Source: Candidatus Micrarchaeum sp.
Lineage (GTDB): Archaea; Micrarchaeota; Micrarchaeia; CABMEP01
Length of the DNA stretch: 64,000 bases
NCBI GenBank assembly: GCA_020723065.1
Contig: DYJP01000002.1
Coordinates: 7,464-71,463, forward strand
Direction: 5' to 3'
Shown here: positions 6,386-57,628 of the stretch, in pieces
Position numbering within the stretch: position 1 is the stretch's first letter
Layout: each line of letters begins with the position of its first letter
Position numbers and translations under genes: made by a program
Notes under the pieces: generated by a model
What the model was told of the DNA's origin: nothing
Database searches by the model: none
What the model saw: only the letters and a program-made list of their open reading frames with translations

Positions 6386-8341
6386 TCAACAAATACCACA
6401 TACTGTACGTACCGACTTCGCGTTGGAAAGAAGCCCCTCTACAAACGGATTCGGCATGTAATATTCGTTGTAGATCCTGTTGGAGATCTCTCCATTGAAT
6501 CCATTGTCTCCGGAAACTATTCCATACAATGAGAGATAGGCTCTTACAAGCGAATCATTCGGGAACGAATTCTTAGCCTTGTTTTCATAATATCCTAATG
6601 TCTGGGCCACGCAACATATGTTTTTCTGAATTCCTTCATAAGTGTCGCAACTGCAATGAGGATTGGAAAGGAACAGTTCTCTTGCTGGAATTCCTCCTGA
6701 ATCATACTGCCCCTTGTAGGCCAATGCCGCCATCAGAACTGAGGCATCTATCTTATTTTCAGATGCCATATTTTTTATAAAAAGCGAGTTCTGCATGCAA
6801 TAGCCTGCATCGAACGAACCAGGCAGCACGGACTGCATGTCTATACAGAAAAGATTCCCACATTGGGTGGTGCTCACCGTCTTCTGAAGGTTTATCTTGT
6901 TGTAATCCGTTACCTCAAGGTCGAGTATATCATTATTGTATCCATACTGGTTGCACTGTGAAGCGACATTGTCTCCTGCTTCAGAGAACACTGCGAATGA
7001 TGAGTATGTGGAAGTGGGTGAACTGCTCGAATAGTATATTGTGCAGAACAGACCAAGACTGTTCAGCCCTTCCTTGGGCAAGGATGAAATGTCCTTAATT
7101 GATATTCCGATGACACCTGATCTTGAAAGGGCTGAAATTGATTTTATCAATGCTTGATAAAAGTCACCTATAGTTGTATTTGTCCAGGTGCAGGTTTCTT
7201 TCTGGTTGGTTCCCTGCCTTACATCTATGTCCAGAATCATGGTCGGCTTCCCGTATGTTTCAATGACGTGCTGCGCGAATGCTTTTATGGAGCTGTCCTT
7301 TTTCACATTTGAATCGGCATCATACTCCTTACTGTACAATATTATATTTGGCTCGCAACTTTCAAACGAATTTACATCCACCGTAAATCCTACAACATCT
7401 ATGCTATCCATGTCTCCGGAAGCCTTGTAGAAATCGAGTGTTTCAGTATCATTAAACCTAACAACCGCTACAGTCAAGCATTTTGGACACCAGGACTTTA
7501 TGGATGAAAAGGTTCCGCTTGGACTCCTTACGTTTTCAGTATTTAAGGATCTTTTTATAGAGTAACCAAAGCCGGGAGCAATAAACGCCGCACCTTTTTT
7601 GTTAGCTGCTTCGGCAAGCAGACTTGGGTATTCTAGATAATTGTATTTATAAAATGGGATTGTTCCGGAACTAAGGATGCAATCTGAAAGAAATTCCACT
7701 TCAGAAGCATCCACCTTTTGAGATTCCAATTTTAATATGATGAATCCCAAATTTCCTCCACACAACGACTTAAATTCCTCTCCCACGAATACAGAATCTC
7801 CAGTTCCAATCATTACGGTCTGTATGAATGTTCCGGTTGATTTCATAGTGTTCGATCCAGAATTTATTATGGCTTCAAGAGCCGATTTCTGCGTTGATTG
7901 AGTTAGATCAAACTTTTTCAATGAGCAGTTGCCTCCCGCCAAAGACGCCACTCCTATTTTTTTCTCAGATGTGAACATACTAACCAGGGAATCCCAAATC
8001 TTTGTAAATATAGATGCTTCCTTATAGTCACAAATGAGTGCAGTACAGGTATTCACTTCCTTGACCTCTTTCTGCTGATATTCTATAGTTTCTGCGGAAA
8101 GATATGAAGTGAACGTTGCCTTCTTAATGCATCCGAAAAGGAACAGTGTCGAAAACGCCAATAAAAGTAAAAGATAATTACTCTTCATAAGACCACTAAA
8201 TGAAAGAGATTCAATCTGAATCGTCTGGCCCCTCAGACTTGTCTTTTGAATCCTTTTTCTCTTTCTTGTATTCCAAAAGCTTCTTCTCTTCATATTCAAT
8301 TTCCTTCTTCTTTTCATACCATATCTACTTCTTTGGTTCAT
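6386..8341 (-). CDS. Large cysteine-rich exported/anchored protein of unknown function, last gene of the membrane-paralog operon
   Basis: A very basic N-terminus (RRRK/KRKR) is followed by a hydrophobic signal/anchor YLLLLLAFSTLFLFGC. About 590 extracytoplasmic residues carry ~20 Cys (CPKC, CGGNCS, CSCDTY...ICCVAQ). An alternative start at ATG 8188 (MKSNYLL...) is possible. An SD-like GGAG lies upstream of the 8341 start. Confidence 0.5.
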   Translation of the reverse strand: MNQRSRYGMKRRRKLNMKRRSFWNTRKRKRIQKTSLRGQTIQIESLSFSGLMKSNYLLLLLAFSTLFLFGCIKKATFTSYLSAETIEYQQKEVKEVNTCTALICDYKEASIFTKIWDSLVSMFTSEKKIGVASLAGGNCSLKKFDLTQSTQKSALEAIINSGSNTMKSTGTFIQTVMIGTGDSVFVGEEFKSLCGGNLGFIILKLESQKVDASEVEFLSDCILSSGTIPFYKYNYLEYPSLLAEAANKKGAAFIAPGFGYSIKRSLNTENVRSPSGTFSSIKSWCPKCLTVAVVRFNDTETLDFYKASGDMDSIDVVGFTVDVNSFESCEPNIILYSKEYDADSNVKKDSSIKAFAQHVIETYGKPTMILDIDVRQGTNQKETCTWTNTTIGDFYQALIKSISALSRSGVIGISIKDISSLPKEGLNSLGLFCTIYYSSSSPTSTYSSFAVFSEAGDNVASQCNQYGYNNDILDLEVTDYNKINLQKTVSTTQCGNLFCIDMQSVLPGSFDAGYCMQNSLFIKNMASENKIDASVLMAALAYKGQYDSGGIPARELFLSNPHCSCDTYEGIQKNICCVAQTLGYYENKAKNSFPNDSLVRAYLSLYGIVSGDNGFNGEISNRIYNEYYMPNPFVEGLLSNAKSVRTVCGIC

Positions 8342-8348
8342 AGCCTAT

Positions 8349-10859
8349 CTACTCCTTCTTCTCGTAACCGAGCTTGGGGGGGCTATATTTCCTTATGAAC
8401 TCTTTCGCGTAAGTGAGCGCCTTGTCCCGGTATTCCGATTTCGGAGATGCGGAAAGGACTATCTGTTCCCGTTCCATCTTGATGAGAAGATCATTGAGCG
8501 AATATCTCTGCATCAACCGCGTATCAAGAGTGAAGTCTTCCTCGACAGGATCAATGTTTCCTGCGAGCATCTCACTGAACGTCTTGTCGAACACTGTGCG
8601 CCCAATATCCTTGTTTTCAACTAGATCGATCCTTTCCAAGGCGAATTTAACCTCTTCGTCCTTTGCGTAAGGCGACATCAGTCTGTTGAAAAGAAGCTCG
8701 AAAACTTGGTCCTCATCCTTTCTTAATATTGTCGCATCAAACATCTGCCTCGCGGTTGTTTCGTCCAGCACCGGCTTGTCCCCGTAATAGTCCTCGGTCC
8801 GATTGTAAATATCGGCAAGAAAGCTATTTGCCTTGTTTGTTAGAATGTCGAAGGATATGAGCGAATTGAATGCGGATTGCTCCTTTGTTTTCACATCGTA
8901 GGAGCTGTTGTACTTTTCCACGTCGTGAAGGAACTTGTCTACGGAAGCCTCAAGGTTATTTCTTGCAGATATGATGTTGTCCATCCTCTCTTGGAAAATC
9001 TTGCCTTCCTGCTTTTCCAAGCCAACCAGAAGCGAAACGACCGCCTCTCTCTTTTCCTTTGATCCGAGAATCTCCTTTTCGATCTCGGCTTTTAATTTGC
9101 CGTCTTTTTCGGAGACATATTGGTCAAGCATGTTGTTTGAGATTCCCAACTTTTCGCTGACATTAAGCTTGTTTAGCAGTTCCTTGTATTCAGAATTTTT
9201 CACAAGGGAATCTTGTTTGGACACTATCTTAGTAAGAAGCGGGTCCAGCTCGCCCTTTTCAAGCTTCTGCACTCCGTCGTTCTTTACGGCCAGCTTGCGC
9301 TTATCGAATTCATTTAGTGTAAGATCGTTTAAAATGGCCGCAATCGAATCCACCCTCTCTTTCTCGGGAGTAATGGCGTTCATTGCGTTCTTATAATGCT
9401 TACTGTTCTGCGGATCCCCCATGATGTCCAGGACGTTTTTATTTATCATGTTCAGGCTCTTTATCATTTCGGCAATGTATATTCTTTCCAGCTCTATTTT
9501 CGTCTGGACTACTGCATCGATTTTCTTTGCGATTTCCGGATGTTCGGAAAAGTCCTTGGTCACCTTGAGCCCGACCTGCTCACGCAAGTCCTGGAAAAAG
9601 TTCGGATTGAGCGCCCTTCCGGGATCCCTTATGTATTGCACGTATTCACTAAGTATATACGTGTCTACGCTCTTCAGCTCTTCTTTTATAATTTCAGGAT
9701 TAATGCTTTCCAGTTCCGCTTTTTTAGCAAGAGTAAGCGCGGAAAGCGCCTTGAGGTCCTTTTCGTATTCCTGGATCTTCTTGACATACTGCTGCATCAT
9801 TTCATTTATCTTTTTTTCAGCCTGGTTTGCTCTCCAAATCTCCCCCTCCGTCCTTGCCTTTGCCTTTATCTTCTCTAATTTTTCCTTGCGCTTTTGCAGC
9901 GTGTTCACCCTACTCTTAGACGTTGCCAATCCTTTCATCAACTTGCTTCTCACCCCGAATTGGTTCAGTCTTCTTGCAAGCTTGAGCATCCTGTCCTGCT
10001 CTGATCTAGAAGTATAAACTTCCATTAGTTCTGCATATTTGTTTCTAGGCGTGTATTTCTCCAAAGTATTAACGGCCGAGAGCGAATTCAAATCTACATT
10101 TTTCGCTTTATAGAATGCAACGGCAACCGAAGTGAATACTTTTGCCATAGTACCTTTCATCACAGAAGTGCTTGTTTTTAACGAAAGCTTGGTAACGCGA
10201 GGCACCTTAATTCCTTTAACTTTGGGCATAGTTATGTCGAAAGCGGACATTGGCTTCCTTCCGGATGCGTAAAGTGCTGCTGCAAGAACACCTATAAACA
10301 AGAATACTATGAACCAACTTGAATCCACAAGCTCCTTAAACGAAAATACTGAAGATGAAAAGACGGTTTCGAATCTTTGAGTTGGAAAAAAAGTGGAATC
10401 GCCTTCAAAACGGACTTTTATTACTGCCTCATTTGAAGAAACTGTGGCAATGCAGAACCCTTTTCCTTCTGAATTGGTTATCCAGTTGCAAAGCTTAACT
10501 TGGTTAGATTGATCATTTGGATCAACCAAGTATGCAACAACCGATTGCCCCGCAACTGGCGAGAGACCGTAATTGCTAGATATGACTGATGGATCGATTT
10601 GGCCTGTCTGAGCATATTCAGCCAAAGTCTGTTTTGACTCTGGAAGAACGAAGCTAGATAATGTTGCGGATATGTTTAGGCTGGTAGTTGAAATGCTTGC
10701 AACTCTAAACTCTGAAAAATAAGTAGAAGTTTTAGTAGCGGCGAATATCATTTCAGAAAACAGAATGGTAACTAAGAAAATGCTTAGATATGAAAAGAAC
10801 AGTTTACGGATGCAAGGCATTCCAATGCATTTTCTTCTTAAAACCATATCTCTCCCCAT
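8349..10859 (-). CDS. Bitopic membrane protein: N-terminal signal/anchor, ~170-aa extracytoplasmic domain, TM helix, then ~620-aa K/E-rich coiled-coil cytoplasmic domain
   Basis: N-terminal hydrophobic segment FFSYLSIFLVTILFSEMIFA and a second TM WFIVFLFIGVLAAALYA. The long tail has a heptad-like K/E/L pattern with no Walker motifs. Confidence 0.5.
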   Translation of the reverse strand: MGRDMVLRRKCIGMPCIRKLFFSYLSIFLVTILFSEMIFAATKTSTYFSEFRVASISTTSLNISATLSSFVLPESKQTLAEYAQTGQIDPSVISSNYGLSPVAGQSVVAYLVDPNDQSNQVKLCNWITNSEGKGFCIATVSSNEAVIKVRFEGDSTFFPTQRFETVFSSSVFSFKELVDSSWFIVFLFIGVLAAALYASGRKPMSAFDITMPKVKGIKVPRVTKLSLKTSTSVMKGTMAKVFTSVAVAFYKAKNVDLNSLSAVNTLEKYTPRNKYAELMEVYTSRSEQDRMLKLARRLNQFGVRSKLMKGLATSKSRVNTLQKRKEKLEKIKAKARTEGEIWRANQAEKKINEMMQQYVKKIQEYEKDLKALSALTLAKKAELESINPEIIKEELKSVDTYILSEYVQYIRDPGRALNPNFFQDLREQVGLKVTKDFSEHPEIAKKIDAVVQTKIELERIYIAEMIKSLNMINKNVLDIMGDPQNSKHYKNAMNAITPEKERVDSIAAILNDLTLNEFDKRKLAVKNDGVQKLEKGELDPLLTKIVSKQDSLVKNSEYKELLNKLNVSEKLGISNNMLDQYVSEKDGKLKAEIEKEILGSKEKREAVVSLLVGLEKQEGKIFQERMDNIISARNNLEASVDKFLHDVEKYNSSYDVKTKEQSAFNSLISFDILTNKANSFLADIYNRTEDYYGDKPVLDETTARQMFDATILRKDEDQVFELLFNRLMSPYAKDEEVKFALERIDLVENKDIGRTVFDKTFSEMLAGNIDPVEEDFTLDTRLMQRYSLNDLLIKMEREQIVLSASPKSEYRDKALTYAKEFIRKYSPPKLGYEKKE

Positions 10860-10919
10860 TATATTTAATTGATTTATATATAAATGCTTTCCGATTTGCT
10901 TAAATTTACAGATATAAGG

Positions 10920-12113
10920 CTATATGAGTTTTGCTAAACCTTCAGCAAAGTCCTGAGCATCCACATTAAGGAATATGGAAAATGACTTTATGAATGTATA
11001 AGCAAGAACTGCTGCAATAAATGGATAAGCAACTCCGAATATCACCATCTCCCCAATTATTCGCTGCGTATTGGTCATATATGAGATTATGGATGTACTT
11101 TGATATTCTGTTTCACCTATTGAGCTAGTAAATAAGTCCATTGTTTTTGAAAATATTCCAGCAGAAAGTATGTCTGTCAAAATCGGACATGGTACGGCAG
11201 ATAAAAGTGTTGCACTGGTGACACCAGATGTTCCACAAAGGCCGTCAACCCCGCCCGAAGTTGTCCCAAGTACCATCAATATGCTGTATGATATCGGATA
11301 AACGAAATAAAGCCCAATTGAAACGGCAATAAGCAGGTTTCCGACAGAACGAACTACAGGAAAGCCCCTTAAGACCACTCCTACTGGAAGAAACACAGTA
11401 AGCATTGTTGTTTGAATAAAGAGCAGGAGCTGCTTTTGGAAAAAGAACATGTAAATTATGTATGAAATATCTGAAAGCAATCTGTTTATGGCACTTATCG
11501 GAACGCTAAGACCCATTTTAGCAATCTGAGTGACAAAGGAAGACGATGAAAGAACTGAAGATATGCTTCCTAGTGCTGAAGGAACTGAAATGCTCGAAAT
11601 AACCTTATTTGATTCTATTGTATTCAAGACCATCGGAATAGCAACAAGGCAAAATCCATCCTCGTATCGCTTCTGGGCACACACGAGTGTTCGGTTCATA
11701 TAATATTCTGCAACCACAAAGGGAGACTTGTCATTGGCCAAAACAGTTTGAAGTGCGATGCGGTCTTTCGACATTATTCCGACAAATTCTGCAGACTTGC
11801 TTGCAAGGACGTCTACGAACATAATTAGAAATGACAAAAGCACAACTGTAGATATTGCATAAATGAATTCTGATTTCGCAAGCTTCTCCAGGTCACTGGA
11901 TTGAAAAAGCCTTCCAAACATGAATGTAAGAGCCGAAAATGAAAATGAAATAGTCACAGCTATTACGGCAATCAATTCCCAGGGAAAGTCAACCGAATAC
12001 CAAGTCTTTGAAAGTTCCGAAGCAGGTGTTGTTGATGAAGAATAAGTTGACTGTGCTAATGAGATGGAAACGAAAGCCAGGAAAAATACAAACCAATTCG
12101 ATATTCTTCGCAT
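10920..12113 (-). CDS. Paralogous polytopic membrane protein, family member 6 of 6 (397 aa)
   Basis: Signal-like N-terminus. Shared motifs SDLEKLAKSEFIYAISTVVLLSF, LPVGVVLRGFPVVRSVGNLLIAVSIGLYFVYP, and C-terminal tail ...AQDFAEGLAKLI. Confidence 0.6.
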   Translation of the reverse strand: MRRISNWFVFFLAFVSISLAQSTYSSSTTPASELSKTWYSVDFPWELIAVIAVTISFSFSALTFMFGRLFQSSDLEKLAKSEFIYAISTVVLLSFLIMFVDVLASKSAEFVGIMSKDRIALQTVLANDKSPFVVAEYYMNRTLVCAQKRYEDGFCLVAIPMVLNTIESNKVISSISVPSALGSISSVLSSSSFVTQIAKMGLSVPISAINRLLSDISYIIYMFFFQKQLLLFIQTTMLTVFLPVGVVLRGFPVVRSVGNLLIAVSIGLYFVYPISYSILMVLGTTSGGVDGLCGTSGVTSATLLSAVPCPILTDILSAGIFSKTMDLFTSSIGETEYQSTSIISYMTNTQRIIGEMVIFGVAYPFIAAVLAYTFIKSFSIFLNVDAQDFAEGLAKLI

Positions 12114-12140
12114 ACGACCACTAAAAATTACAATACATAA

Positions 12141-13772
12141 CTATATTATCTTCCATATGGAGGCAATATCCATTTCAGAACCAAGCGCGCTAGACAGGCC
12201 TCTTATTCCCTTAGATATTACCGTAAGATTAAGTATTGGAAGCAGAATTCCGGCAATGAACGAGACTACAACCAGATCGAAAAGTTTTCTTATTGATTCG
12301 GATATTGTCGAATCAGAACTGGCGCTTCCTACTATTGTTTGTGAATATGAAGATGTTAGCAAAGTTGTTTGTGTATCCAAAACTTGAAACTGTGCAGACG
12401 GTGACGTTTCGGAAATAGCATAGCTTGCTGCGAGAAGATAGTTTACATCAGATTCAGTCAGAATTGTCTTTGTACAAACTTCATTTGGAGCAGCACCAGT
12501 ACAAGCCCTAGAGGCACACTCTCTCCAATCACCGCACTTTTCCCCATTTGATTTCTTAGGTATGCAAACCTTTCCACCTTCGATCTCATTTGAAACTGTT
12601 CTGTCCCCCACATAAATTGTACTGTAGACATGACTTGTCGAATTGCAAATGCCAGATATGCATTCCGAATCTTTAGTGCACTCTACCCCGTTTGCCTTCC
12701 CTATCTCACATTTTCCAGTGATTGGATTTTTCACAAAACCCTCACAGCATCGTATTGCAACCGAACCTTCTCCACCACAGGAACTACAGTTCTTCCCGGA
12801 AGAAGTCTGCTCACAGTATCCAGACTGGCATTGATCATCTGTCTCGCACGGCTGACCAACATCTTTCAATGGAGAACAAAGCTTAAGATTTTTAGATTGA
12901 TCGAATTCACACATATGCGAATAGCAGTCAAAATTGTTTGTGCATGAAAGTTTCTCAAATATTTCATCTGAATTAACATATTTGTCTACCATTGCCTGAT
13001 TCAAAAGCAAAACGAAAGGAATTAAGATATAAAGACTAATGCCTGCGCCAAGAAGTGCACCGCCAAATTTACGGAAAGGCAAGATGGATCTAAGAACCAA
13101 CCCTATAGGGACCAAAAAGAACAATGTTAAATACGGGACTATCTTTATTATATGAAGCTGAACCACGGTCAACAAGTATGCAGACAAGGCTATCCCATAA
13201 AGAACAAACGTTGAATCGGAAACATATTTTATCGGGTCTGATAATATCTCGAATGTTTTAGATGGTGTTGCATAGCCTTCAACAGATACAGTGGAAAGAA
13301 GCTGCAAGCTTGCTCCTATCGCACCTATTGCGATAGTTGTTTTGCCTAAATATCCAGAAAGTCTAGAAAGATATGATTCGGCAGCAATGAATGTAGGACC
13401 TTCCTTGCCGAAAAGATCGCTCACAACATCGCTACACATAAAGCCGACTATCGCAGTAATTGACACCAGGATAAGTGCGGTGAATACTAGCTGATAAAAC
13501 TCATTTTTAGACTTAGAAATGAAAGAATTGTCGATCGTAGAACCGTACATGTACATAAATCCGACCAGTAAAATTCCAATAATAAGCCCGATGAAGGCGG
13601 TTGCCCTCCAATCATTTATTGAAAGCATGAACTCGCATCCTGCTGTTTGCGCGCTTTCTGCCGTTACTGCGGCTTGAACAAAATAAGAAATGAAAAAGAA
13701 TATGAATAGTGATCTGAATAGAACTGAATCCTGGAAAGTTCCTAAATTCAAATTAAATTTTTTGGAGTCCAT
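12141..13772 (-). CDS. Paralogous polytopic membrane protein, member 5 (543 aa), with a disulfide-rich extracytoplasmic insert
   Basis: Shared motifs KNEFYQLVFTALILVSI and VPIGLVLRSILPFRKFGGALLGAGISLYILIPF. A ~110-aa insert carries repeated C-x(3-4)-D-x-C-x-S-G-x-C modules (CETDDQCQSGYC, CTKDSECISGIC, CTNNFDCYSHMC). Confidence 0.6.
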   Translation of the reverse strand: MDSKKFNLNLGTFQDSVLFRSLFIFFFISYFVQAAVTAESAQTAGCEFMLSINDWRATAFIGLIIGILLVGFMYMYGSTIDNSFISKSKNEFYQLVFTALILVSITAIVGFMCSDVVSDLFGKEGPTFIAAESYLSRLSGYLGKTTIAIGAIGASLQLLSTVSVEGYATPSKTFEILSDPIKYVSDSTFVLYGIALSAYLLTVVQLHIIKIVPYLTLFFLVPIGLVLRSILPFRKFGGALLGAGISLYILIPFVLLLNQAMVDKYVNSDEIFEKLSCTNNFDCYSHMCEFDQSKNLKLCSPLKDVGQPCETDDQCQSGYCEQTSSGKNCSSCGGEGSVAIRCCEGFVKNPITGKCEIGKANGVECTKDSECISGICNSTSHVYSTIYVGDRTVSNEIEGGKVCIPKKSNGEKCGDWRECASRACTGAAPNEVCTKTILTESDVNYLLAASYAISETSPSAQFQVLDTQTTLLTSSYSQTIVGSASSDSTISESIRKLFDLVVVSFIAGILLPILNLTVISKGIRGLSSALGSEMDIASIWKII

Positions 13773-13780
13773 TAAATCAC

Positions 13781-14917
13781 TTATAATTTTTTGATTACTT
13801 CTGAGAAATCCACATCGGATCCGAAGAAGTACCCAAGCTCCTTTGCAACTATAATCGTTATAGTAAAGTCAATTATAGGTATTATCGTAAACAATAAAAA
13901 TGCGAATGACGCTTCGTTGAATAAGACAAGCGGGTTCAAATATTCATTTAGCAACGATGGAAGTTTAGATACAGTATTTATGGAAAAAGCCAATGAAGCA
14001 AATATTGAATTCGTATCATCCTTAAATGAAGTTTCAAGATTCGTCATGAACTTGCCCATTTCTGTATTCTGGGTTCTTGCATCCAGAATATCACTCCATC
14101 CCCCTGGCTTATTCAGAAGTGTATCTACTATTGTTTGATTAATTACAAATGTAAGTGGATAAACTATGTAGAACGAAATTGCAACAACAATCAGAAAATT
14201 ACCAACATTTCTTAAAAAAGAAAAGGTTCTTAATAATAAACCAACTGGCAGAATCAGAGTAAATGCAAGCTTATCTATAAAGTCTAAAAAGTATATCTGC
14301 ATTGTAGTAAGTCCAAGAACTGAAGCAGAAGAGGTTAATATGAAATTGACCATGTTAATTATACTTTCAAAAATAGAGCTTATTGCCCTATCTATGTCAA
14401 ATAAAGGTACTTCCGCAATTTTCGTAAGATAACTGTTGCCAACCACTAATGCAACTTTGAACATATTGGCTGAAGTGACGATTGAAAGCACATATTTTTG
14501 AACGGAAGAAAGATAGATCTTAGCGTTTTCTATCGCTCCGTTTGGATGCTCCACTGTGGCTGTAAATCCGTAAGCCTCAAAAACCATATTCTCTATCTTT
14601 ATCGCTGAAAAGAATAGGAAAACCACTAGCGACATCATGATTACCTGATATAGCTCATTGTTTGCCCAACCGCCCAATTCCCTGACTCCAAAAACCTTGG
14701 AAACCATAAATGCAAGAGAGATAACACCGAGATTTAAGAAGAGCGCTGCAAGAACTATTATTTCCCACGGCAGCGCTCTTAAATTGTAAACTACGACCGA
14801 ATCTTCCTGAGCGAATGTCGCTGGAATTAAAGCAATAATAATCATAAGAACAAAAATGAACGGATGGACACTATATGATTTGAAAGAAGCCGTTCCTGTT
14901 TTTTTAATTTCATTCAT
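13781..14917 (-). CDS. Paralogous polytopic membrane protein, member 4
   Basis: Shared motifs NNELYQVIMMSLVVFLFF and LPVGLLLRTFSFLRNVGNFLIVVAISFYIVYP; tail FGSDVDFSEVIKKL. The start is trimmed to MNEIKK (ATG 14915-14917), which removes the 47-nt overlap with the upstream gene; the track start is 14980. Confidence 0.55.
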   Translation of the reverse strand: MNEIKKTGTASFKSYSVHPFIFVLMIIIALIPATFAQEDSVVVYNLRALPWEIIVLAALFLNLGVISLAFMVSKVFGVRELGGWANNELYQVIMMSLVVFLFFSAIKIENMVFEAYGFTATVEHPNGAIENAKIYLSSVQKYVLSIVTSANMFKVALVVGNSYLTKIAEVPLFDIDRAISSIFESIINMVNFILTSSASVLGLTTMQIYFLDFIDKLAFTLILPVGLLLRTFSFLRNVGNFLIVVAISFYIVYPLTFVINQTIVDTLLNKPGGWSDILDARTQNTEMGKFMTNLETSFKDDTNSIFASLAFSINTVSKLPSLLNEYLNPLVLFNEASFAFLLFTIIPIIDFTITIIVAKELGYFFGSDVDFSEVIKKL

Positions 14918-14933
14918 GTGATCACGATAAGTG

Positions 14934-16148
14934 TTATATAAGTTTAGAGAATCCAGCAAGATCCACGTCTCCTCCAACAAGCTGGGAGAATTCCTTAATG
15001 AATGAGACTAGTCCATAGATAGAAATTATGAATGGAACAAGGATCCATACTGAAAGCACCGAGAGATTATCAAGAAAACCACCGGGCATTATTGTTCTAA
15101 ATATAGTGTATGATATTCGGTCAACTGTATTTCCTTCGGATGTTTCAACCCAAAGATATTTCGTAGTTAAATCCTTTGAGAATTTCACAACTCCTGTTGC
15201 CCAGTCTTTATTTGATTCATCGATATTTTCAGAAACTACTACAATTCCGCCAGTTCCTGCTGCGGAACTTTCAGAAGGAACGTTTGAAATTTGGGACGTT
15301 TCAGCGGTTATAAACTGGGAATTGTCTGAAAATGCAGATACAAACGCATTTGGATCAGGTGAAAACAAAGTCGTCGAAAATACTATAAGCATCGGATATA
15401 TGAAATAAGTTCCGACTGCTATTGAGAAAAGAAGACCGCCCACCCCTCTGAATAATGATATTGACCTCAAAGCAAGACCCGCAATTATTAATGCTGGAAA
15501 GAGCGACTTCATTACAAAAAATAAAAACATTGAATTGGCCTTCAGAAGTATAAGAAGGTTGAAGCCGATTTGAATAAAGTTTGAATAGATTTGGCTTATA
15601 TTGGAGAGAACCGCCAAGGGGGTCGCTTTAAACGCACCATAACCCATAGATACTCCGGCAAGGAGATCGACCCAACCTGCAGAAACCACTTTGTTTGCAA
15701 GATAATACCGCACCACATCATAAGTGTGCTCTAGCTGCGTTATTGCAATCACCATATGGCAAGGAAGTTCGTCTCCTCCGCAGCTCACCTGTACCATTTT
15801 AACTGCAGCATTGAGATTCTCTGGACTTTCAGTAATTATTCCGTACTTTTGGAATTCTATCTTATTGAATGTGCAGTAATCTGTGCTGCAAGAAAGGCTG
15901 AGCGCTGGATTTATCGCAGAAATTACGCCATACATCAGATTGTTCGCTATAGCGACCATGAGCACAGCAGAACTCAGAAGAAATGCTGAAGCAAAAATCT
16001 GGTATATCTCATTCTGGGCCCATTTCTTTAAATTGTCATTGTCGAGGGCCCTTGCGATCATGTAGAATAATGAAATGAAGGCTAAGGAAATCACCAAAAT
16101 TAAAGAGGTGACGGGAGCCCAAGCCTGAAATATCATTTCATATACCAT
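14934..16148 (-). CDS. Paralogous polytopic membrane protein, member 3 (404 aa)
   Basis: Shared motifs LKKWAQNEIYQIFASAFLLSS and IIAGLALRSISLFRGVGGLLFSIAVGTYFIYP; tail VGGDVDLAGFSKLI. Confidence 0.6.
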   Translation of the reverse strand: MVYEMIFQAWAPVTSLILVISLAFISLFYMIARALDNDNLKKWAQNEIYQIFASAFLLSSAVLMVAIANNLMYGVISAINPALSLSCSTDYCTFNKIEFQKYGIITESPENLNAAVKMVQVSCGGDELPCHMVIAITQLEHTYDVVRYYLANKVVSAGWVDLLAGVSMGYGAFKATPLAVLSNISQIYSNFIQIGFNLLILLKANSMFLFFVMKSLFPALIIAGLALRSISLFRGVGGLLFSIAVGTYFIYPMLIVFSTTLFSPDPNAFVSAFSDNSQFITAETSQISNVPSESSAAGTGGIVVVSENIDESNKDWATGVVKFSKDLTTKYLWVETSEGNTVDRISYTIFRTIMPGGFLDNLSVLSVWILVPFIISIYGLVSFIKEFSQLVGGDVDLAGFSKLI

Positions 16149-16163
16149 ATAATCACTTTAAGC

Positions 16164-17054
16164 TTAATCTATGCTATCCAAGAAATTTGTAAATGTCTCT
16201 ACAAATGAAACAGTAATTGTAAAATTGATCAAAGCGAGAAATGTCGCTTGCGGAATCAGAATCGCCATCTGGTCAAAGTAGCCTAAAACATCTATAATTT
16301 GTGAAGATAACTTAAATGTTTCTAAAGGTTCAATAGTTGTCTTTGCAAGACCGTTGAAATTCGGATCAATTGTGTTGTATATTGCATAGTCCATAACGTA
16401 GGTCATTGGAAATACAATATAAAGACCAAAGGCTAATGCCATTAGGAATGAGCCTCCTTTGCGCATCATTGGAATCGTTCGCAATACCATTCCGAGTGGA
16501 AGCAATAATGTCATCGCAAACGCCTCCGAAAACTGAATAAGTATCAATTGAGCATGAAGACTTCCTACTATCACATTGAACAAGGATCCAAAAAGACCTA
16601 TTATCTTAGAAAAAGGAGTGAGCACTTTTCCTGGAGAGAATTTAACTGAACTCTTAGCCGCTGGAAGACCGGTTTTAATCTCTAAAGATGAAATCATGTC
16701 GATAATGAAACCACTGACCCAGAGATTTTGAATTGTCGGAAGCCCTTTCTTATAGATAAGGGTCGTAAGATATTGGCTGCTTGCGGTGAACTGGTTTCCT
16801 TCCCCTATAGTGCTCTGCACCAGATTCTGTGCTGCCCCGCAAGAGGCAGTGGCAAGCCCAACTATTACAACTGCAACTATCAATGCAACGAAAAGCTGAC
16901 TTAGTTCTTTCTTTGCCATCGCCTCGAATTCGCTCTTAATAAGAAGCCTACCGAGCATAAACAGCAAGGAAACAAATGCAAGCGTGGTAATTGAAGCTAA
17001 ACCTATGAAAGTCCAAACATCAATTACAGGCATGCATGCGTCAAGAACAACCAT
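16164..17054 (-). CDS. Paralogous polytopic membrane protein, member 2 (296 aa, minimal core without a large insert)
   Basis: Shared motifs EFEAMAKKELSQLFVALIV and LLPLGMVLRTIPMMRKGGSFLMALAFGLYIVFP. Confidence 0.6.
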   Translation of the reverse strand: MVVLDACMPVIDVWTFIGLASITTLAFVSLLFMLGRLLIKSEFEAMAKKELSQLFVALIVAVVIVGLATASCGAAQNLVQSTIGEGNQFTASSQYLTTLIYKKGLPTIQNLWVSGFIIDMISSLEIKTGLPAAKSSVKFSPGKVLTPFSKIIGLFGSLFNVIVGSLHAQLILIQFSEAFAMTLLLPLGMVLRTIPMMRKGGSFLMALAFGLYIVFPMTYVMDYAIYNTIDPNFNGLAKTTIEPLETFKLSSQIIDVLGYFDQMAILIPQATFLALINFTITVSFVETFTNFLDSID

Positions 17055-17066
17055 ATAAACACCAAA

Positions 17067-18755
17067 TCATATCAGTCTTCCCATTTCTATTATTTTTGTT
17101 TCGCCACCAAGTGTCTGTGATATTGACTTAAATGAACCTACAAATATCGCTATGGTAAGTGCAAATGTAAAAAATATCATCAATGGCGGAAACATTATCT
17201 TGTCTATATTATCTGTAAGATACAGAAACAAATAACCCGAGGAAACGGGACTCAGTGCGACACCAATTAATGATGCATCTGAAGCAGTTGAAAGCAGGCC
17301 CTTCATAAATGTATTGGTGCCGCTGAAAAATCCTTTTATTCCGGATGCAGTAAGCCTCAAATAGCTTATATCATTCAACTCATTTTCCTTTGTTGATGCT
17401 GACAATTTGCAATAAAAACTAGACCAAAGCCCTTCTTTGCAGGGATCTCCAAAATAAAAGCTGTAATTGTCGATATACTGCAAGTTCTTCTCTTCCGACT
17501 TAACAGCTAAAACGATCGTATTTTCATCGTCTGCCTTGAATGATGCAGAATTTAATGCTTGAGTTATATTCTGACCTACAGTAACTGCACCTCTTCCAGT
17601 AAGCTTGAAACAGTTTGTCACATCAAATTTAGATGTATATGGTATTCCATCTTGATCATAAGTGGTAATAGTTTCTTCTCTAATTGTCTTCCAGTAAACA
17701 TAATCCTTTGGAGGCAAATTAGCGTAAATTGAAGATTCAAAAGAAGATGAAATATCAGAAACATAAATTTTGTAATTCAATATATCGTTACACTGAACCT
17801 GTGACCAAATAGAATAATTGAGCGGTACAAGCGCCTTCCATTCGAATTTGTCGCTTTCATTGAGATAATACTTTCCTGGAGCTGGCGAAGTCTTGAGATA
17901 CAGTCCAGCGCCAGTGGGATCGAAGTTTGGCAATTCGCCTAAGATGCCACTACCTGGTTCCATCTCTGTATACAATATATTTTTCATCTCAATGTACATT
18001 GCGTTTGAAACTATAAGCGAAATAGGATAGATTATGTAAGCTGCCAAGGCAATTGCAATTAAGGTGGAACCTGTTTTCCTACTCAATGGGAAGGCACGAA
18101 GCAATACACCCAAAGGCAATACGATTGGAAGCATTGTCTTTTGAATTATATTAAGCAATTCGTGCTGAACAAACATTGCAAAAAACATAGGTTGCATAAA
18201 GGATTCAAAAGATGAAAGCGGGCCTAAAAGCATTCCAAAGGGGCTTCCATATTTTAAGCCAAAATTACTTACAATTGCTGCAAAACTTCCCAACAACCCA
18301 GGAAGATTTACACTTGCAGCAGAAAGTAATGCAGTAAGCCAGCCTATTTTAAATTCGAAAGTTGAAATGAAAGTTATAATCGTTTTAAGAGAAATGACGT
18401 GAGTATATGCCTCTATAAGATCAGCTTGTGCAGTGTCAAGAAATGCGGCAGCAGATTCATAAGGAGTTTGACCGACATATGCAGTAGTTAGTGCAGTAAT
18501 AATTATTATCAATGAATATGCAATTCCAATCAAGGCTCCAGTAAATATGAATTCACTGAGCTCCTTTTTCGCCCAGCCTTTCAACTCATTAGACTGGAAT
18601 GCAGTGGAAAACATCCATGCAAGAGAACTCATTATGGCAGAAAGAATAAGGGACAACACGCAGGTTGCGAACCAGTTTCCATTTTGAAAAACAGAATCGA
18701 TTGAGGACTGGACTACTGTTGTAAACGTGCTCATTTCTGTCGCCATTAATATCAC
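17067..18755 (-). CDS. Paralogous polytopic membrane protein, member 1 (562 aa), first gene of the block
   Basis: Shared motifs NELKGWAKKELSEFIFTGALIGI and VLPLGVLLRAFPLSRKTGSTLIAIALAAYIIYP. A ~250-aa extracytoplasmic insert is present. Tail LGGETKIIEMGRLI. Confidence 0.6.
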   Translation of the reverse strand: MILMATEMSTFTTVVQSSIDSVFQNGNWFATCVLSLILSAIMSSLAWMFSTAFQSNELKGWAKKELSEFIFTGALIGIAYSLIIIITALTTAYVGQTPYESAAAFLDTAQADLIEAYTHVISLKTIITFISTFEFKIGWLTALLSAASVNLPGLLGSFAAIVSNFGLKYGSPFGMLLGPLSSFESFMQPMFFAMFVQHELLNIIQKTMLPIVLPLGVLLRAFPLSRKTGSTLIAIALAAYIIYPISLIVSNAMYIEMKNILYTEMEPGSGILGELPNFDPTGAGLYLKTSPAPGKYYLNESDKFEWKALVPLNYSIWSQVQCNDILNYKIYVSDISSSFESSIYANLPPKDYVYWKTIREETITTYDQDGIPYTSKFDVTNCFKLTGRGAVTVGQNITQALNSASFKADDENTIVLAVKSEEKNLQYIDNYSFYFGDPCKEGLWSSFYCKLSASTKENELNDISYLRLTASGIKGFFSGTNTFMKGLLSTASDASLIGVALSPVSSGYLFLYLTDNIDKIMFPPLMIFFTFALTIAIFVGSFKSISQTLGGETKIIEMGRLI

Positions 18756-23503: not shown

Positions 23504-24655
23504 ATGCCTATAACCATTCTTTTGGAAAAGAACAAACTCAAGGTAAGAAACCAACAGGATTACGAAGCGCTAAGAAGGGCTTTCTACGGAGAGAAGCGCG
23601 GACCCGAAATAGAGCTCACTGTAGAGGAAGCCCTCTATCTGATGGAAGTTCGAAATGCTATTTGCCTAGATGGAGAGCGATCCGTCACATTCAGTGAACT
23701 GGTGCAAAAATTCAACAAACCGAAACTGTTCGCAGAATACATCACATTCAGGGACTGGAGAGAAAGGGGACTCATGGTAAGACCTTTCTCAGACTCGAAA
23801 GGAAACTACAACAAGAATCCGACAGTCAAGTATCCGTTCAAGAAAACAAAATTCAATAAGGTGAATGCCAGCGGATTGTTCTTCAAAGAAGATAAGATGA
23901 CGATCCTGGAAGATGAAGAGACAGGAAAAATCCTGTATCAAAGTCATTGGTTCGGCCAGTACGGATCCTACAAGGCGGAAGGAAGGGGAAGGTTCCTAAA
24001 ACTTGACAAGTTCGAGACGATGTTCCTTGTGAAAAACTGTGGAATGGAGCTCATGAACTGCACGGAAGCAGAGCTCGACGCCAACCTGAATGAGGATCCT
24101 GATTTTCTGTCGATGTATCAAGTTTATGAAGATTGGAGAAATGCTGGATTCATAGTAAAAACAGGATTCAAATTCGGAACGCACTTCAGAATATATTTCC
24201 CAGGCGCATTGCCTGGAAAGAGCAAGGATTGGACCCATTCAAAGCACGTCCTCCACATATTCCCAAGGGAGAAGAGAATGGTAATAGCTGAATGGGCGAG
24301 AGCGATCAGGGTGGCTCACGGAGTCAGGAAGACGTTCATACTCGCCATACCTGGAAAGAAAAAAAAGGAAAAGAATAAATCCATAGTCAGTTTCATATTA
24401 TACCATAGGAAAGGAAACGCCATAGAGACCCCGGACAAAGACGGACCTTCTTTCGCCATGGTTTCATTGAGCGAAGAGGAAATGATCGGAGGAAACGAGC
24501 TTGCAATAGCGATCGAAGAATCCAAGAACCACGGGCTAGATGTTGTCCTGGGTATAGTTGATAGAGAGACTTCTGTCACTTATTACAGGGTAAAAAGAAT
24601 CGACTTGCCGGAAAGCAAGTACGAATATTACGAAATAGAATGGATACAGCCATGA
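23504..24655 (+). CDS. endA: tRNA-splicing endonuclease EndA, three-unit architecture
   Basis: Central catalytic motif GFKFGTHFRIYFPG...WTHSKHVLHI (Tyr/His/Lys triad region). It is preceded by an N-terminal EndA-like domain and followed by a ~130-aa extra C-terminal unit. Confidence 0.75.
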   Translation: MPITILLEKNKLKVRNQQDYEALRRAFYGEKRGPEIELTVEEALYLMEVRNAICLDGERSVTFSELVQKFNKPKLFAEYITFRDWRERGLMVRPFSDSKGNYNKNPTVKYPFKKTKFNKVNASGLFFKEDKMTILEDEETGKILYQSHWFGQYGSYKAEGRGRFLKLDKFETMFLVKNCGMELMNCTEAELDANLNEDPDFLSMYQVYEDWRNAGFIVKTGFKFGTHFRIYFPGALPGKSKDWTHSKHVLHIFPREKRMVIAEWARAIRVAHGVRKTFILAIPGKKKKEKNKSIVSFILYHRKGNAIETPDKDGPSFAMVSLSEEEMIGGNELAIAIEESKNHGLDVVLGIVDRETSVTYYRVKRIDLPESKYEYYEIEWIQP

Positions 24656-33819: not shown

Positions 33820-33925
33820 GCAGGGGTGCCAGAGCCAGGTCAAACGGGTCAGATTCAGTATTGAAGACCAAGCTTAGGACCTGATGCGCGTAGGCGCTGC
33901 GTGGGTTCAAATCCCACCTCCTGCA
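33820..33925 (+). tRNA. tRNA-Leu (anticodon TAG), class II with long variable arm and a candidate 19-nt intron at non-canonical position 30/31
   Basis: Acceptor stem GCAGGGG/CUCCUGC with discriminator A. T-arm GUGGG-UUCAAAU-CCCAC. Variable-arm hairpin GCGC-GUAG-GCGC. Removing 33853-33871 restores a perfect anticodon arm UCAGG-CUUAGGA-CCUGA. The D-arm pairing could not be resolved by eye. Confidence 0.55.
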
Positions 33926-36002: not shown

Positions 36003-37688
36003 TTAAACTATTTTCACCAAATCTCTTGCAACATTAAAGATGAATAGAGTTATTGGCAGAAACAAGATGAAATAACCTATAAATGTCCTTAACCTTCCTT
36101 CCTGGAACGCTATGAAAATCGAGGCCAGCAACACATATATAACCAGATATGCCTGAACCGCTTCAAAAGAAGCGGAAAGCACCGCATTCTTAAATTCCAA
36201 CGAAGTCGCATCCTGTCCGGGGGGCTGTATTCCAGAGATAATACCCAATATAACCGACAGAATGATCGGAACCATTATGCATCCGCCAACAAGTATGGTG
36301 TACTTTTGCAAGGACAGAGACGACGCTTGCTCCTTGGTCAACATGTTGAGCTCAAATATGTCTTCGGCGGTTTCCTTTATTGCATGATGGACGTCCTTTC
36401 CGGTCTTATAACACTGAATAAGAAGTGAAATGACGCGATCCAAAAGTATCGAATGGTTCCTGTCCTTCATATTCAACAACGCATGAATTGGATTTATCCC
36501 GATTTTTATCTGCCTTTCAGCTTTTTTAAACTCTTTAGACAAAGAATGGTAACCTGAATCCCCGATGTTTTGTATTATTTTCTCCATAGGGATCCCAAAT
36601 TCCAATGTGGCTGCATAAAGCAACGCATCCGGAAGATACTGCTCAATCTCATTTGACCGCCTTTCGATAAACCACAGCAGAACTAAGTAGACGATAACAG
36701 GAATGAAAAGAATAAGGAGACAGTATATACTGAAAAAAACAGCTGCTGAAATTGCAACGACAGAAGAAACAACGGAAACGGCAATAATGAAATCTTTGAA
36801 CTTTACGTCCAATCCGAGATTTCGAAGCTCTTCATTAAGCATTAGTATTTCGCGCTTAGAAAACAGTGGTTCGGAAACGTTCGTAAGCACGGAAGGAGTG
36901 GAATATTTAATATAAAATATAAGTAGGATTTCAACAACAGGAAATACGAAAATAAATATGAACCAAATGTCCGAAGGCGAAGTCGGAGAGTCGAGATACA
37001 ATCCAGCCACAACCACATAAGCAAGGTACATCGTTGGTGCTATTGCCGATACGGCAATGAACATCAGGCTCATGAAATTAAGCTTAGCTGAAAACTCCTT
37101 GAAACGGAAGCGCTGGGAATTGATCAATTCGTCTGCACTGTGCTTTAATTCTGAACCGTCCAATCCTTCTAAATACACGTGAATCAGCTGAACTATAAGC
37201 TTCTTTACTATCTGTGAATCTACCCTATCGGCCATTTGCCTTAAGGAATCCGGAATAGTGGCTCCTCCTTCCACCATGTTTACGACTTTCTTGAACTCAT
37301 AAGAACATTGATAATTGGAGTCTGCAACATTCTTCAGAGCAGATTCGAAAGGAACTTTCATGTTGATTTGAATTCCTATAGAACGTATTGCAATTGGAAG
37401 ATCTGATTCGATGCGCATCGCCCTAGATTTGGCAAATTTCATAGGAAGTCGCTTAAATATTAAGAAAAATAATAGAGAAAGTACTGCCGCAAGTACTATG
37501 GATGAGATAATATCGAAATATCCGATCTGCTGCGCAAATGCAGAGAACAATAAGCCTAGGATAACACTTCCAAATGAGATATACCGCAGATACTGGCTTA
37601 CTGAAAATGGAAAGTCCGATTTATACAATGAAATGCTCAGTTCCCTTTTCAGATCTGAAACATACTGTTTTTCTTGGCCATTCTCCAA
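36003..37688 (-). CDS. FlaJ/TadC-like polytopic membrane protein (type II secretion F-domain family), pilus assembly platform
   Basis: 561-aa multi-TM protein immediately downstream of, and co-oriented with, the FlaI-like ATPase. It has two cytoplasmic helical domains between TM blocks, as in FlaJ/TadC. Confidence 0.6.
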   Translation of the reverse strand: MENGQEKQYVSDLKRELSISLYKSDFPFSVSQYLRYISFGSVILGLLFSAFAQQIGYFDIISSIVLAAVLSLLFFLIFKRLPMKFAKSRAMRIESDLPIAIRSIGIQINMKVPFESALKNVADSNYQCSYEFKKVVNMVEGGATIPDSLRQMADRVDSQIVKKLIVQLIHVYLEGLDGSELKHSADELINSQRFRFKEFSAKLNFMSLMFIAVSAIAPTMYLAYVVVAGLYLDSPTSPSDIWFIFIFVFPVVEILLIFYIKYSTPSVLTNVSEPLFSKREILMLNEELRNLGLDVKFKDFIIAVSVVSSVVAISAAVFFSIYCLLILFIPVIVYLVLLWFIERRSNEIEQYLPDALLYAATLEFGIPMEKIIQNIGDSGYHSLSKEFKKAERQIKIGINPIHALLNMKDRNHSILLDRVISLLIQCYKTGKDVHHAIKETAEDIFELNMLTKEQASSLSLQKYTILVGGCIMVPIILSVILGIISGIQPPGQDATSLEFKNAVLSASFEAVQAYLVIYVLLASIFIAFQEGRLRTFIGYFILFLPITLFIFNVARDLVKIV

Positions 37689-37702
37689 AATTTACCACGA
37701 CC

Positions 37703-39091
37703 TTATTCCGGCTTAGAATTTTTAGCCTGAATGTTTGAAAATAACCTTTCCTGAATAGCAAAAACAGAAGTGTTGAAATCGCTGTACTGCAGGTTCTCCA
37801 GAAATTTCTTTCGCATATTCAACTCTTCCTCCAATTCACTCATGCTCAAGCCAAAATTATCTGAAATCTCTTCAAATTTCTGCGAATTCTCAACTGAACC
37901 TTCCATAATGCTGGTTTTTCTATTCAATTCGAAAACTTTATTTATGGATCCGTCGCTCTGAATTTCTGATATTTCGATTCCCTTTCGCTCCTCCCAGTAT
38001 TTCCGTTCTGCTGGGTCATACCTCATTAATCTTCGTTGTACTATAATAAAATCCATGGAATTAAGATCGTGTTTTGAAATTCCAAGCGATACCATCCTCT
38101 TCAACACCTCTTCTGAAGATTGTGCATGAAATGTCGCATAACTTCCTCTGGCCTGCCCACTCAAAATTGTTTCTATGAAGGCATCTGTTTCTTCTTTTGT
38201 TCGGATTTCACCTACAATTACCCGGTCCGGTCTCATCCTAAGGCTATCTTCCACTAAATGCTTCATGTCTATTTTCAATTCTGAGTTCGAAAGCAACTTT
38301 ATTTTATGTGGATGGGGAATATTAATTTCTGGCGTCTCCTCTATGATTAAAATTCGATCAGAAAGTGGAACAAAAGAAAATAAAGCATTGAGGGTGGTCG
38401 TCTTTCCGCTTGCAGTATTTCCAGAGATAAGAACATTATAGTCCGATTGAAAAACAAGCGAAAGAAATGCTATGGCTTCAGGAGAATAAGTACGTTTGTT
38501 GAACAACTCCGTGGGAGTAATCGGATTGTTCCTAAATTTTCGTATGGTCATCTCTACGTTTGAGATTGGAGGAATAGATGCATGAAGTCTTGAACCGTCT
38601 GGCAAAACTGCATTGATTTTCGGGTTCTGATATGTTATTCTCCTACCCACACTTCTGGCAATCTTATTTATGACTGCAATAACAACATCCTGATTTCGAA
38701 AAGAAAGATTCGAAGCAATCCAACCCTTACCGATAAAATATACATAAACTGGTTTGTTTACTCCGATTATCGCTATTTCTTCTATATTTTTGTCCAACAG
38801 GAACTCGTCCAATCCGTTATAGCCGGAGATATTATAAACTAGATATTCAGTTATGTATTTCTCCTGGTCATGGTCTAAAGAAATATTATGGTATTTACAA
38901 TAATCCACAAGAAGCTCCGCTGCCTCTCTTCTTATGTTCTTTAGAGAAATGTCTTTATTTTTTGAAACCTCTTTGAACTGGTTTGAAATTTCGACAATTA
39001 GGTTTTCTTCGTTTTTAGAAATTGGAGGGATTGATAGAGTATATTCGGCTTTTTCTTTTAGAATCTCCCATCCTAACATAGCCAACCTCAT
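37703..39091 (-). CDS. Type II/IV secretion system ATPase (FlaI/VirB11/GspE family), pilus assembly ATPase
   Basis: Walker A GNTASGKTT, Walker B/Asp box LIIEETPE, and an archaeal FlaI-like N-domain. Confidence 0.8.
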   Translation of the reverse strand: MRLAMLGWEILKEKAEYTLSIPPISKNEENLIVEISNQFKEVSKNKDISLKNIRREAAELLVDYCKYHNISLDHDQEKYITEYLVYNISGYNGLDEFLLDKNIEEIAIIGVNKPVYVYFIGKGWIASNLSFRNQDVVIAVINKIARSVGRRITYQNPKINAVLPDGSRLHASIPPISNVEMTIRKFRNNPITPTELFNKRTYSPEAIAFLSLVFQSDYNVLISGNTASGKTTTLNALFSFVPLSDRILIIEETPEINIPHPHKIKLLSNSELKIDMKHLVEDSLRMRPDRVIVGEIRTKEETDAFIETILSGQARGSYATFHAQSSEEVLKRMVSLGISKHDLNSMDFIIVQRRLMRYDPAERKYWEERKGIEISEIQSDGSINKVFELNRKTSIMEGSVENSQKFEEISDNFGLSMSELEEELNMRKKFLENLQYSDFNTSVFAIQERLFSNIQAKNSKPE

Positions 39092-44227: not shown

Positions 44228-44886
44228 AAAGAGGTCATAGTATGGTGCTTAAAAAAATAGAAAGAAAAATCAGCTGGGACCTGTACTTAACTGCATTTGT
44301 AATATCTGTTGTCGTATTTGCAATCGGAGTATGGGTTGGACTCCAGATTGAAATCGAAGCAAGCCGGCAAATGTCAAACTTAATAGATCAGACAAGCAAT
44401 GGAATGATTGCAATAAGCAACATCCTTCTAATGGAAAAAGACCCTTCGTTCTGCACTTATCTTGAAGAAGAAATGATGATTTTTGATTCCGAAACTTATT
44501 CCTTGGGGAGGCAAATAGGCTCCATGGAAGAGAGAAGGGGGGTCGAAGACTCATTGAAAATAAAATACATGGACCTGGAATTCAGGGACTATCTGCTTTC
44601 GAAAGGCATTAATGAACGTTGCAGCCTAAATCAGAACATAGTCCTTTACTTTGTTTCAAGCTCGGATTGCGCCAGTTGCAAGCAGCAGGGAGAAGAGCTT
44701 AGCCTTGCAAGAGAGCAAACGAACACCAAAGTATATACGTTTGATATCGGCATGAACTCGAGCCTGGTGAATTCCCTTAAGGAAAAGTATTTGATTGACT
44801 CTGTTCCATCTATGGTGATCAATGAAAACAGATACGAAGGATACAGGTCTGCAAGCGAATTAATATCTGTTTTGAATTCAAAGTGA
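44221..44886 (+). CDS. Membrane-anchored thioredoxin-like protein
   Basis: N-terminal TM helix. CASC (CxxC) lies in a Trx-like context (LYFVSSSDCASCKQQ). Confidence 0.4.
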   Translation: MVKRGHSMVLKKIERKISWDLYLTAFVISVVVFAIGVWVGLQIEIEASRQMSNLIDQTSNGMIAISNILLMEKDPSFCTYLEEEMMIFDSETYSLGRQIGSMEERRGVEDSLKIKYMDLEFRDYLLSKGINERCSLNQNIVLYFVSSSDCASCKQQGEELSLAREQTNTKVYTFDIGMNSSLVNSLKEKYLIDSVPSMVINENRYEGYRSASELISVLNSK

Positions 44887-52037: not shown

Positions 52038-52114
52038 AAACTCACTACGCAAGACAAGTATACAATAAAAGATTGATTGTAAAGAAATTAAAAGGTTAGT
52101 GTGAAAAATGATAT

Positions 52115-54061: not shown

Positions 54062-54065
54062 TAGA

Positions 54066-57233: not shown

Positions 57234-57239
57234 AATGAG

Positions 57240-57467: not shown

Positions 57468-57555
57468 CTTAACTTAATTTCTTTTTTATTTTTTCTTTAT
57501 TTTTCTCATTTTTGATTTTTATATATTTAATTAATATTGGTCTGTATCTAATTAG

Positions 57556-57628
57556 TGGGGTCGCTGAGATTTGAACTCAGATCAACAGCTCCCAAAGCTG
57601 TCAGCATACCAGGTTAGCCCACGACCCC
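57556..57628 (-). tRNA. tRNA-Pro (anticodon TGG)
   Basis: Acceptor GGGGUCG/CGACCCC with discriminator A. Anticodon arm ACAGC-UUUGGGA-GCUGU. T-arm CUGAG-UUCAAAU-CUCAG. CCA is not encoded. Confidence 0.8.

Follow-up and report, generated by a model that had tools for sequence, protein, structure and literature searches.

We analyzed a 64,000-nucleotide (nt) stretch of a Candidatus Micrarchaeum genome (assembly GCA_020723065.1, contig DYJP01000002.1, positions 7,464 to 71,463 of the forward strand), referred to here as the window. Its minus strand holds an eight-gene operon, g1 to g8, in which the fifth gene encodes a 543-amino-acid (aa) polytopic membrane protein, p543, with a cysteine-rich module in one of its loops. 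From its sequence, the module was assigned firmly to the Dickkopf_N/colipase group by profile search, by its relatives, and by profile-profile comparison. The operon is composed as follows.

6386..18755 (-): eight-gene operon g1-g8; six paralogues, then g7 and g8
17067-18755 (-): g1, 562-aa paralogue (p562)
16164-17054 (-): g2, paralogue
14934-16148 (-): g3, paralogue
13781-14980 (-): g4, paralogue
12141..13772 (-): g5, polytopic membrane protein of a Cys-rich paralogue class, 543 aa, ATG start; supported by the open reading frame (ORF) list, orthologues, and the AlphaFold core
10920-12113 (-): g6, paralogue
8349-10859 (-): g7, 836 aa; signal peptide, short ecto domain, one transmembrane (TM) helix, ~630-aa cytoplasmic coiled coil
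6386-8341 (-): g8, Cys-rich exported lipoprotein-like protein

The six consecutive paralogues have in common the motif LPxGxxLRxxPxxRxxGxxL...Y..P, a final TM helix, and a G.D.D...K.I tail, so that the description of the 543-aa protein as a paralogue in the initial annotation of this DNA was borne out. The parts of p543 are listed below from the N-terminus to the C-terminus.

13668..13772 (-): probable signal peptide, aa 1-35; KK n-region, hydrophobic core, putative cleavage between VQA and A; similar N-termini in aligned relatives
13434..13637 (-): span of a candidate disulfide pair, C46 (N-terminal ecto tail, 13635-13637) to C113 (outer end of TM2, 13434-13436)
13059..13094 (-): loop C, aa 227-238, LRSILPFRKFGG; conserved stretch of strongly basic character, predicted cytoplasmic; anchors the topology
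12273..13001 (-): loop D, aa 258-500, between TM4 and TM5; variable, very probably extracytoplasmic; houses the Cys-rich module
12474..12944 (-): Cys-rich module, aa 277-433; 157 aa, five four-Cys units, 20 Cys
12876..12944 (-): unit 1 (C277, C283, C288, C299)
12786..12848 (-): unit 2 (C309, C315, C320, C329)
12708..12779 (-): unit 3, modified form (C332, C342, C343, C355); with C329 forms a CxxC...CC...C piece
12564..12680 (-): unit 4 (C365, C371, C376, C403); contains a lineage-specific long beta-hairpin
12567-12644 (-): beta-hairpin of unit 4, aa 377-402; strands at model residues 107-121 and 124-138
12474..12536 (-): unit 5 (C413, C419, C424, C433); CGDWRECASRAC...C at aa 413-433
12288..12416 (-): Ser/Thr-rich (44%) linker from the module to TM5; variable, predicted local distance difference test (pLDDT) score below 50
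12216..12272 (-): TM5, aa 501-519
12144-12215 (-): conserved cytoplasmic tail after TM5, LGSEMDIASIWKII

Of the 22 Cys in p543, 20 fall within aa 277-433. A Cys-dense insert had been placed at aa ~265-375 (~110 aa); the insert is real, but its extent is aa 277-433 (157 aa). The strings quoted for it were all found in the protein, namely CTNNFDCYSHMC at aa 277-288, CETDDQCQSGYC at 309-320, CTKDSECISGIC at 365-376, and CSSCGG...RCCEGF at 329-346. A repeated Cys unit is also present, although the pattern first given for it, C-x(3-4)-[DN]-x-C-x-S-[GH]-x-C, is better written as C-x5-C-x-S-x2-C-x(8-26)-C, with four Cys per unit and five units, the last of which had been overlooked. Cys makes up 0.81% of residues in the other 43 ORFs of the window, and against this background the binomial probability of at least 20 Cys in 157 aa is 5e-18; the Cys density is therefore not due to chance. 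In a full-length AlphaFold model of p543, the core helices had pLDDT values of 80-90 and the insert was below 50.

All 20 module Cys were invariant in orthologues at 67, 58, and 43% identity. The module was 71, 59, and 46% identical to those of these close orthologues, compared to 68, 68, and 48% for the TM core, and its non-Cys positions alone were 66, 53, and 36% identical. The parts that varied among close orthologues were the beta-hairpin of unit 4 and the 44% Ser/Thr linker. The hairpin was missing from family member P0004 and from more distant members, and the equivalent of unit 3 in distant relatives had the regular C-x5-C-x(4-5)-C form. The 20-Cys architecture was retained in family members down to 25-30% identity.

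We performed an exhaustive profile search of 1.84 billion representative proteins and obtained 493 relatives at E<=1e-3; the family thus comprises at least 493 clusters at 50% identity. It was this search that revealed the family, as a word-indexed homologue search had found only 4 orthologues, and the same 4 when a 25-sequence profile was used. Most of the 493 relatives were 330-410 aa long and matched the membrane core only. Named relatives all came from Candidatus Micrarchaeota, Micrarchaeia, or Anstonellaceae (DPANN group), and the family is, as far as seen, restricted to Micrarchaeota. A scan of GTDB genomes for relatives gave one spurious match in Acidobacteriota and no orthologue.

Loop statistics were taken from 145 of the best 149 relatives, those with both anchor motifs. 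The variable loop ranged from 14 to 956 aa (median 81). It contained no Cys in 94 relatives, at least 8 in 26, and exactly 20 in 17. The initial annotation had treated the insert as an oddity of one paralogue; with 26 of 145 family representatives carrying at least 8 Cys in the loop and the 20-Cys loop kept in members down to 25-30% identity, it is instead the mark of a paralogue class that is old and conserved, and the insertion is not recent. The g1 protein carries a ~260-aa Cys-poor insert at exactly the same loop, for which there was no Pfam or PDB match. The paralogues are conserved mainly in the parts that face the cytoplasm and differ in their outer loops. Extreme ectodomains were seen in the family members P0162 (1265 aa), P0116 (955 aa), and P0139 (872 aa): a 956-aa loop with 90 Cys in one, Cys-rich domains at both the N-terminus and the loop in another, and four N-terminal CARDB domains in a third.

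Topology was read from the family alignment using positive-inside statistics for 148 members. The family fraction of K+R was highest in loop C (0.21 over 12 residues, LRxxPxxRxxGG), in which R228, R234, and G237 are invariant or at least 90% conserved, followed by the loop after TM1 (0.11) and the C-terminal tail (0.105). The corresponding fractions were 0.04 for the N-terminal tail, 0.056 for loop B, and 0.066 for the variable loop D, and in p543 loop D (243 aa) is acidic, with 32 D+E versus 21 K+R. A segment resembling a signal peptide begins p543 and many of its relatives, and cleavage in p543 would follow residue 35. CARDB is a domain class of extracellular proteins, and four such domains precede TM1 in one relative, an N-out fusion; in another relative, Cys-rich domains occur at both the N-terminus and the variable loop. 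The K+R pattern, the signal-like N-termini, and the N-terminal fusions together indicate an outer N-terminus, an inner C-terminus, and a variable loop on the outside. N-glycosylation sequon density was uninformative as a topology marker.

The number of Cys was even in 27 of 28 loops with at least 4 Cys. These even counts, the outside topology, and the homology and similarity in fold to secreted disulfide-rich domains suggest that the module is very probably disulfide-bonded. The earlier suggestion of a surface-exposed, disulfide-bonded insert is therefore very probably correct, the family pattern of positive charge placing the insert outside and not in the cytoplasm. C46 and C113, outside the module, were both present in 94 of the 148 family members, both absent in 27, and present singly in 27. 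They are candidates for a further disulfide, which may tie the N-terminal tail to TM2 even in the Cys-poor paralogues.

A profile of four orthologues matched the bacterial protein P0158 (Thermoanaerobaculia) through query positions 277-378 with an E of 4.9e-9 among the 1.84 billion proteins. P0158 is a Dickkopf_N protein (E 1.5e-33, eight stretches), and its NCBI name agrees. When the insert alignment was compared to the eight P0158 repeats with hhalign, the probability was 94.7% (E 6.4e-8), and units 4 and 5 aligned to one full Dickkopf_N repeat. Within the Cys-rich class, 8 of 25 members matched Dickkopf_N at E<=0.01 (best E 6.3e-8). One archaeal family member, P0038, passed the Dickkopf_N threshold with 30.3 bits against a gathering score of 25, and its NCBI name is 'Dickkopf N-terminal cysteine-rich domain-containing protein [Candidatus Micrarchaeia]'. 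A weaker result came from the insert profile against PDB sequences, where LEAP-2 (E 0.0075, aligned to unit 5), DKK2 (E 0.031), and prokineticin Bv8 (E 0.51) were found. Foldseek with the module gave no significant match; among its weak ones, procolipase and colipase had the highest probability. With phmmer, the insert gave chance matches only against PDB sequences.

Pfam searches of full-length p543 gave no match at E<=0.1, and for the insert alone at E<=10 they returned only sub-threshold Dickkopf_N and Colipase-like (E 1.6); no known intracellular metal-binding family was among the matches to the repeat. The insert had been said to resemble extracellular knottin or EGF-like modules. An extracellular, disulfide-type module is what the evidence favors, but one of the Dickkopf_N/colipase group instead of EGF or knottin. 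An EGF-like domain, as judged by a six-Cys EGF pattern and a match to EGF models, was rejected, and a knottin was not supported by Pfam, class-member, or fold searches.

Dickkopf_N (PF04706) is found in DKK1-4 of animals and in numerous secreted repeat proteins of bacteria, and the p543 units have in common with it a G-x2-C-x2-D-x2-C-x-S-G-x-C-...-C motif. The likeness consists of profile-level homology to true PF04706 repeats, same-family archaeal relatives that pass the threshold, and a predicted extracellular, disulfide-rich character. Another close group for the module is the colipase fold group, which includes the DKK C-terminal domain, colipase, prokineticin/MIT1/Bv8, and the draxin C-terminal domain. 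Unlike Dickkopf_N proteins, which are soluble and secreted, the g5 module sits in a loop of a polytopic membrane protein; unlike animal DKK, it has an archaeal host, no Wnt/LRP context, and 4 Cys per unit. The module type is thus already known, and its position in a polytopic loop is unusual but conserved.

The genes of the operon are separated by 7-60 nt, except for g3 and g4, which overlap by 47 nt as called. This overlap is created by the TTG start listed for g4; an internal ATG (MNEIKK...), 21 codons downstream and just before a signal-like segment, is the more likely start. For g8, the true start is likely M52 at 8188, which would give MKSNYLLLLLAFSTLFLFGC, a lipobox-like N-terminus, and would widen the gap before g8 to as much as ~160 nt. 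The listed ATG adds 51 very basic residues, and starting at M52 gives a protein of 600 aa, the length of the orthologues. Four g8 orthologues have 16 invariant Cys columns. The g7 protein has 836 aa here versus 610-644 aa in related genomes, and its coiled coil appears expanded. All eight genes are syntenic next to the gene for leucyl-tRNA synthetase (LeuRS) in four other contigs (L001, L002, L003, and L005). In a more distant member of the Micrarchaeota (L006 4566-13169, GCA_902385155.1), the g7 and g8 homologues lie upstream of g1, not downstream of g6, and the linkage is kept. No Pfam or NCBIfam family was found for any of the eight proteins, and phmmer searches of g7, g8, and p562 gave no matches in PDB.

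Taken together, the best overall explanation, to which we give a probability of roughly 0.65, is that g5 is the Cys-rich subunit of one envelope complex and that its Dickkopf-like module serves as an outer binding surface. This explanation builds on what was observed: conserved sequence features, a topology signal, linkage in an operon, and the homology and fold class of the module. The g5 protein would cross the membrane five, possibly seven, times, with the N-terminus out and the C-terminus in. The last of its outward loops would display a rigid ectodomain of five tandem four-Cys Dickkopf_N/colipase units, stabilized by as many as ten disulfides and joined to the last TM by the flexible Ser/Thr-rich linker. 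The eight operon products would form one envelope complex, the constant inner face of which may dock on the g7 coiled coil or on other subunits, while the varying loops of the paralogues would make up its exposed outer face. The module would then act as a stable protein- or membrane-binding surface, its target lying either on a partner cell or within the complex, for instance on g8. Known members of the fold all bind proteins or lipid interfaces (LRP6 for DKK, lipase and lipid for colipase, DCC for draxin), and by this analogy a binding role is expected.

Several points weigh against this explanation. The p543 insert reached only 12.3 bits (E 0.23) against the PF04706 gathering score of 25 bits, so its Dickkopf_N membership rests on transitive and profile evidence. 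The units have 4 Cys each and a pair has 8, as do the PF04706 repeats of the bacterial P0158, whereas an animal DKK domain has 10. Between loops B and C, residues 188-226 could be one long tilted helix, as in the AlphaFold model, or a hairpin that joins 144-163 to make three passes, and both options leave the module outside. The core of the family had no informative structural or sequence relative in Pfam, NCBIfam, or PDB, nor when a core profile was searched against PDB. No DsbB- or VKOR-like gene was seen in the window, and no oxidase was linked to the operon. Finally, disulfide formation, the complex, the binding role, and the partner are all inferred.

The alternative that survives best, though we consider it unlikely, is that the module lacks a specific ligand and is a purely structural spacer, resistant to proteases and acid, that sets envelope geometry (for example, in support of a surface layer). 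A tandem row of rigid disulfide units with a Ser/Thr-rich linker behind it would suit such a role, as would the unrelated inserts of varying length at the same site in other paralogues. However, conservation at the non-Cys positions of the module is close to that of the TM core, which suggests a specific surface rather than a spacer.

Slightly less probable is that the module is an extracellular effector active on membranes or lipid interfaces, in the style of colipase, the prokineticin/MIT toxins, or LEAP-2, and works on the membrane of a partner or host during episymbiotic contact instead of being a passive adhesin or scaffold. Its weak fold and sequence neighbors include colipase, a spider toxin, prokineticin Bv8, and the antimicrobial peptide LEAP-2, and the lineage is Micrarchaeota, whose cultivated members live attached to other archaea. 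The module is, however, tethered at both ends within the loop of a membrane protein, the loop is acidic, and no hydrophobic finger was identified in the module.

We think it improbable that one gene of this genome recently gained the insert by horizontal transfer of a bacterial Dickkopf_N cassette. The only protein outside the family that was found through the insert is bacterial (P0158), yet the 20-Cys architecture persists to 25-30% identity, g5 has the same operon position in all syntenic genomes, and its GC (guanine-cytosine) content is without anomaly in a window of ~40% GC overall. Wide conservation, synteny, and normal GC indicate that any acquisition would be ancient within the lineage. 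The least credible alternative, that the Cys cluster is a metal-binding (Zn or Fe-S), possibly cytoplasmic domain, could draw on the high Cys density, a single CxxC (C329-C332), and a His286 conserved in close orthologues, but we rejected it, as the positive-inside rule puts loop D outside, the C-x5-C-x4-C spacing is not CxxC-paired, His286 is not kept in the wider class, the sequence and fold matches are all secreted disulfide domains, and no metal-binding Pfam family matched at E<=10.

Among known systems, VirB6/TrbL proteins of type IV secretion have an N-out, five-TM, C-in topology with a large outer loop and occur as tandem paralogues in Rickettsia. The g5 family resembles them by analogy, in its predicted N-out, approximately five-TM, C-in topology and its tandem paralogues with variable hydrophilic inserts. 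Membership in VirB6/TrbL (PF04610), as judged by a TrbL model match and linkage to type IV secretion ATPases, was rejected, and the likeness is one of topology only. The VSP and HCMP proteins of Giardia are a functional analogy only, being membrane-anchored, disulfide-rich ectodomains on a small host-associated cell; they have no sequence relation to g5 and differ in their CxxC repeats and antigenic variation, whereas the g5 module is conserved, occurs once per genome, and is under purifying selection.

An odd-looking Cys-rich insert has therefore turned out to be a divergent but recognizable Dickkopf_N/colipase module, which is a modest result given that a same-family relative is already so named in NCBI. 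A fold class best known from animal signaling is here a conserved part of an archaeal polytopic membrane protein, and a module conserved in this way implies routine disulfide formation outside the Micrarchaeota cell. The host family and its conserved operon are uncharacterized and more interesting than the module, although so far they offer only an architecture and a hypothesis; in the literature on Micrarchaeota/DPANN, Dickkopf, and cysteine-rich proteins, we found no account of the membrane protein family. In organisms thought to depend on contact with other cells, the contact machinery could reasonably be a conserved surface complex whose outer loops vary. That the operon is a new, Micrarchaeota-specific envelope machine for episymbiont cell contact or exchange, with the module gripping or perturbing the partner surface, is a speculative extension that we would not expect to hold.

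The initial annotation had also proposed a dedicated disulfide-rich surface proteome, citing g8 and a thioredoxin-like protein at 44221-44886 (+). The latter has a TTG start, a basic N-terminus, one N-in TM anchor, and a CASC motif, features that fit an outward-facing oxidoreductase. Its Pfam score was 20.7 bits versus a threshold of 27, and its best PDB relatives were thioredoxins (E ~0.008). It lies 30 kb from the operon and shares 7 nt with the GT2 glycosyltransferase gene upstream of it, an overlap that makes co-transcription of the two genes probable. A TM-anchored CASC protein and a Cys-rich exported g8 do exist, but the claim of a proteome is weak: only 2 of 45 ORFs in the window are Cys-rich, both within the eight-gene operon, which makes for a Cys-rich operon and not a surface proteome.

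The neighbors of the locus are housekeeping genes (LeuRS, an ACT-domain protein, an M48 peptidase, HSP20, a wyosine-synthesis enzyme, and a tRNA-splicing endonuclease at 23504-24655), and inspection of the gene surroundings and GC content gave no sign of a mobile element near the locus. The window is archaeal and includes a 23S rRNA gene at 61267-64000. GC drops to 27-33% at 52000-60000, compared to ~40% elsewhere, in a stretch that holds a PAS histidine kinase, topoisomerase I, an unassigned ORF (56682-57233), and tRNA-Pro. Rfam called tRNAs at 59611-59721 (+), 111 nt, and 33820-33925 (+), 106 nt, both of which were missed by ARAGORN; these are probably intron-containing archaeal tRNAs. At 36003-39091 (-), a T2SSE gene (type IV pilus/archaellum-type ATPase) adjoins one for a T2SSF platform protein, and this pair is a second surface system in the window, unlinked to the eight-gene operon.
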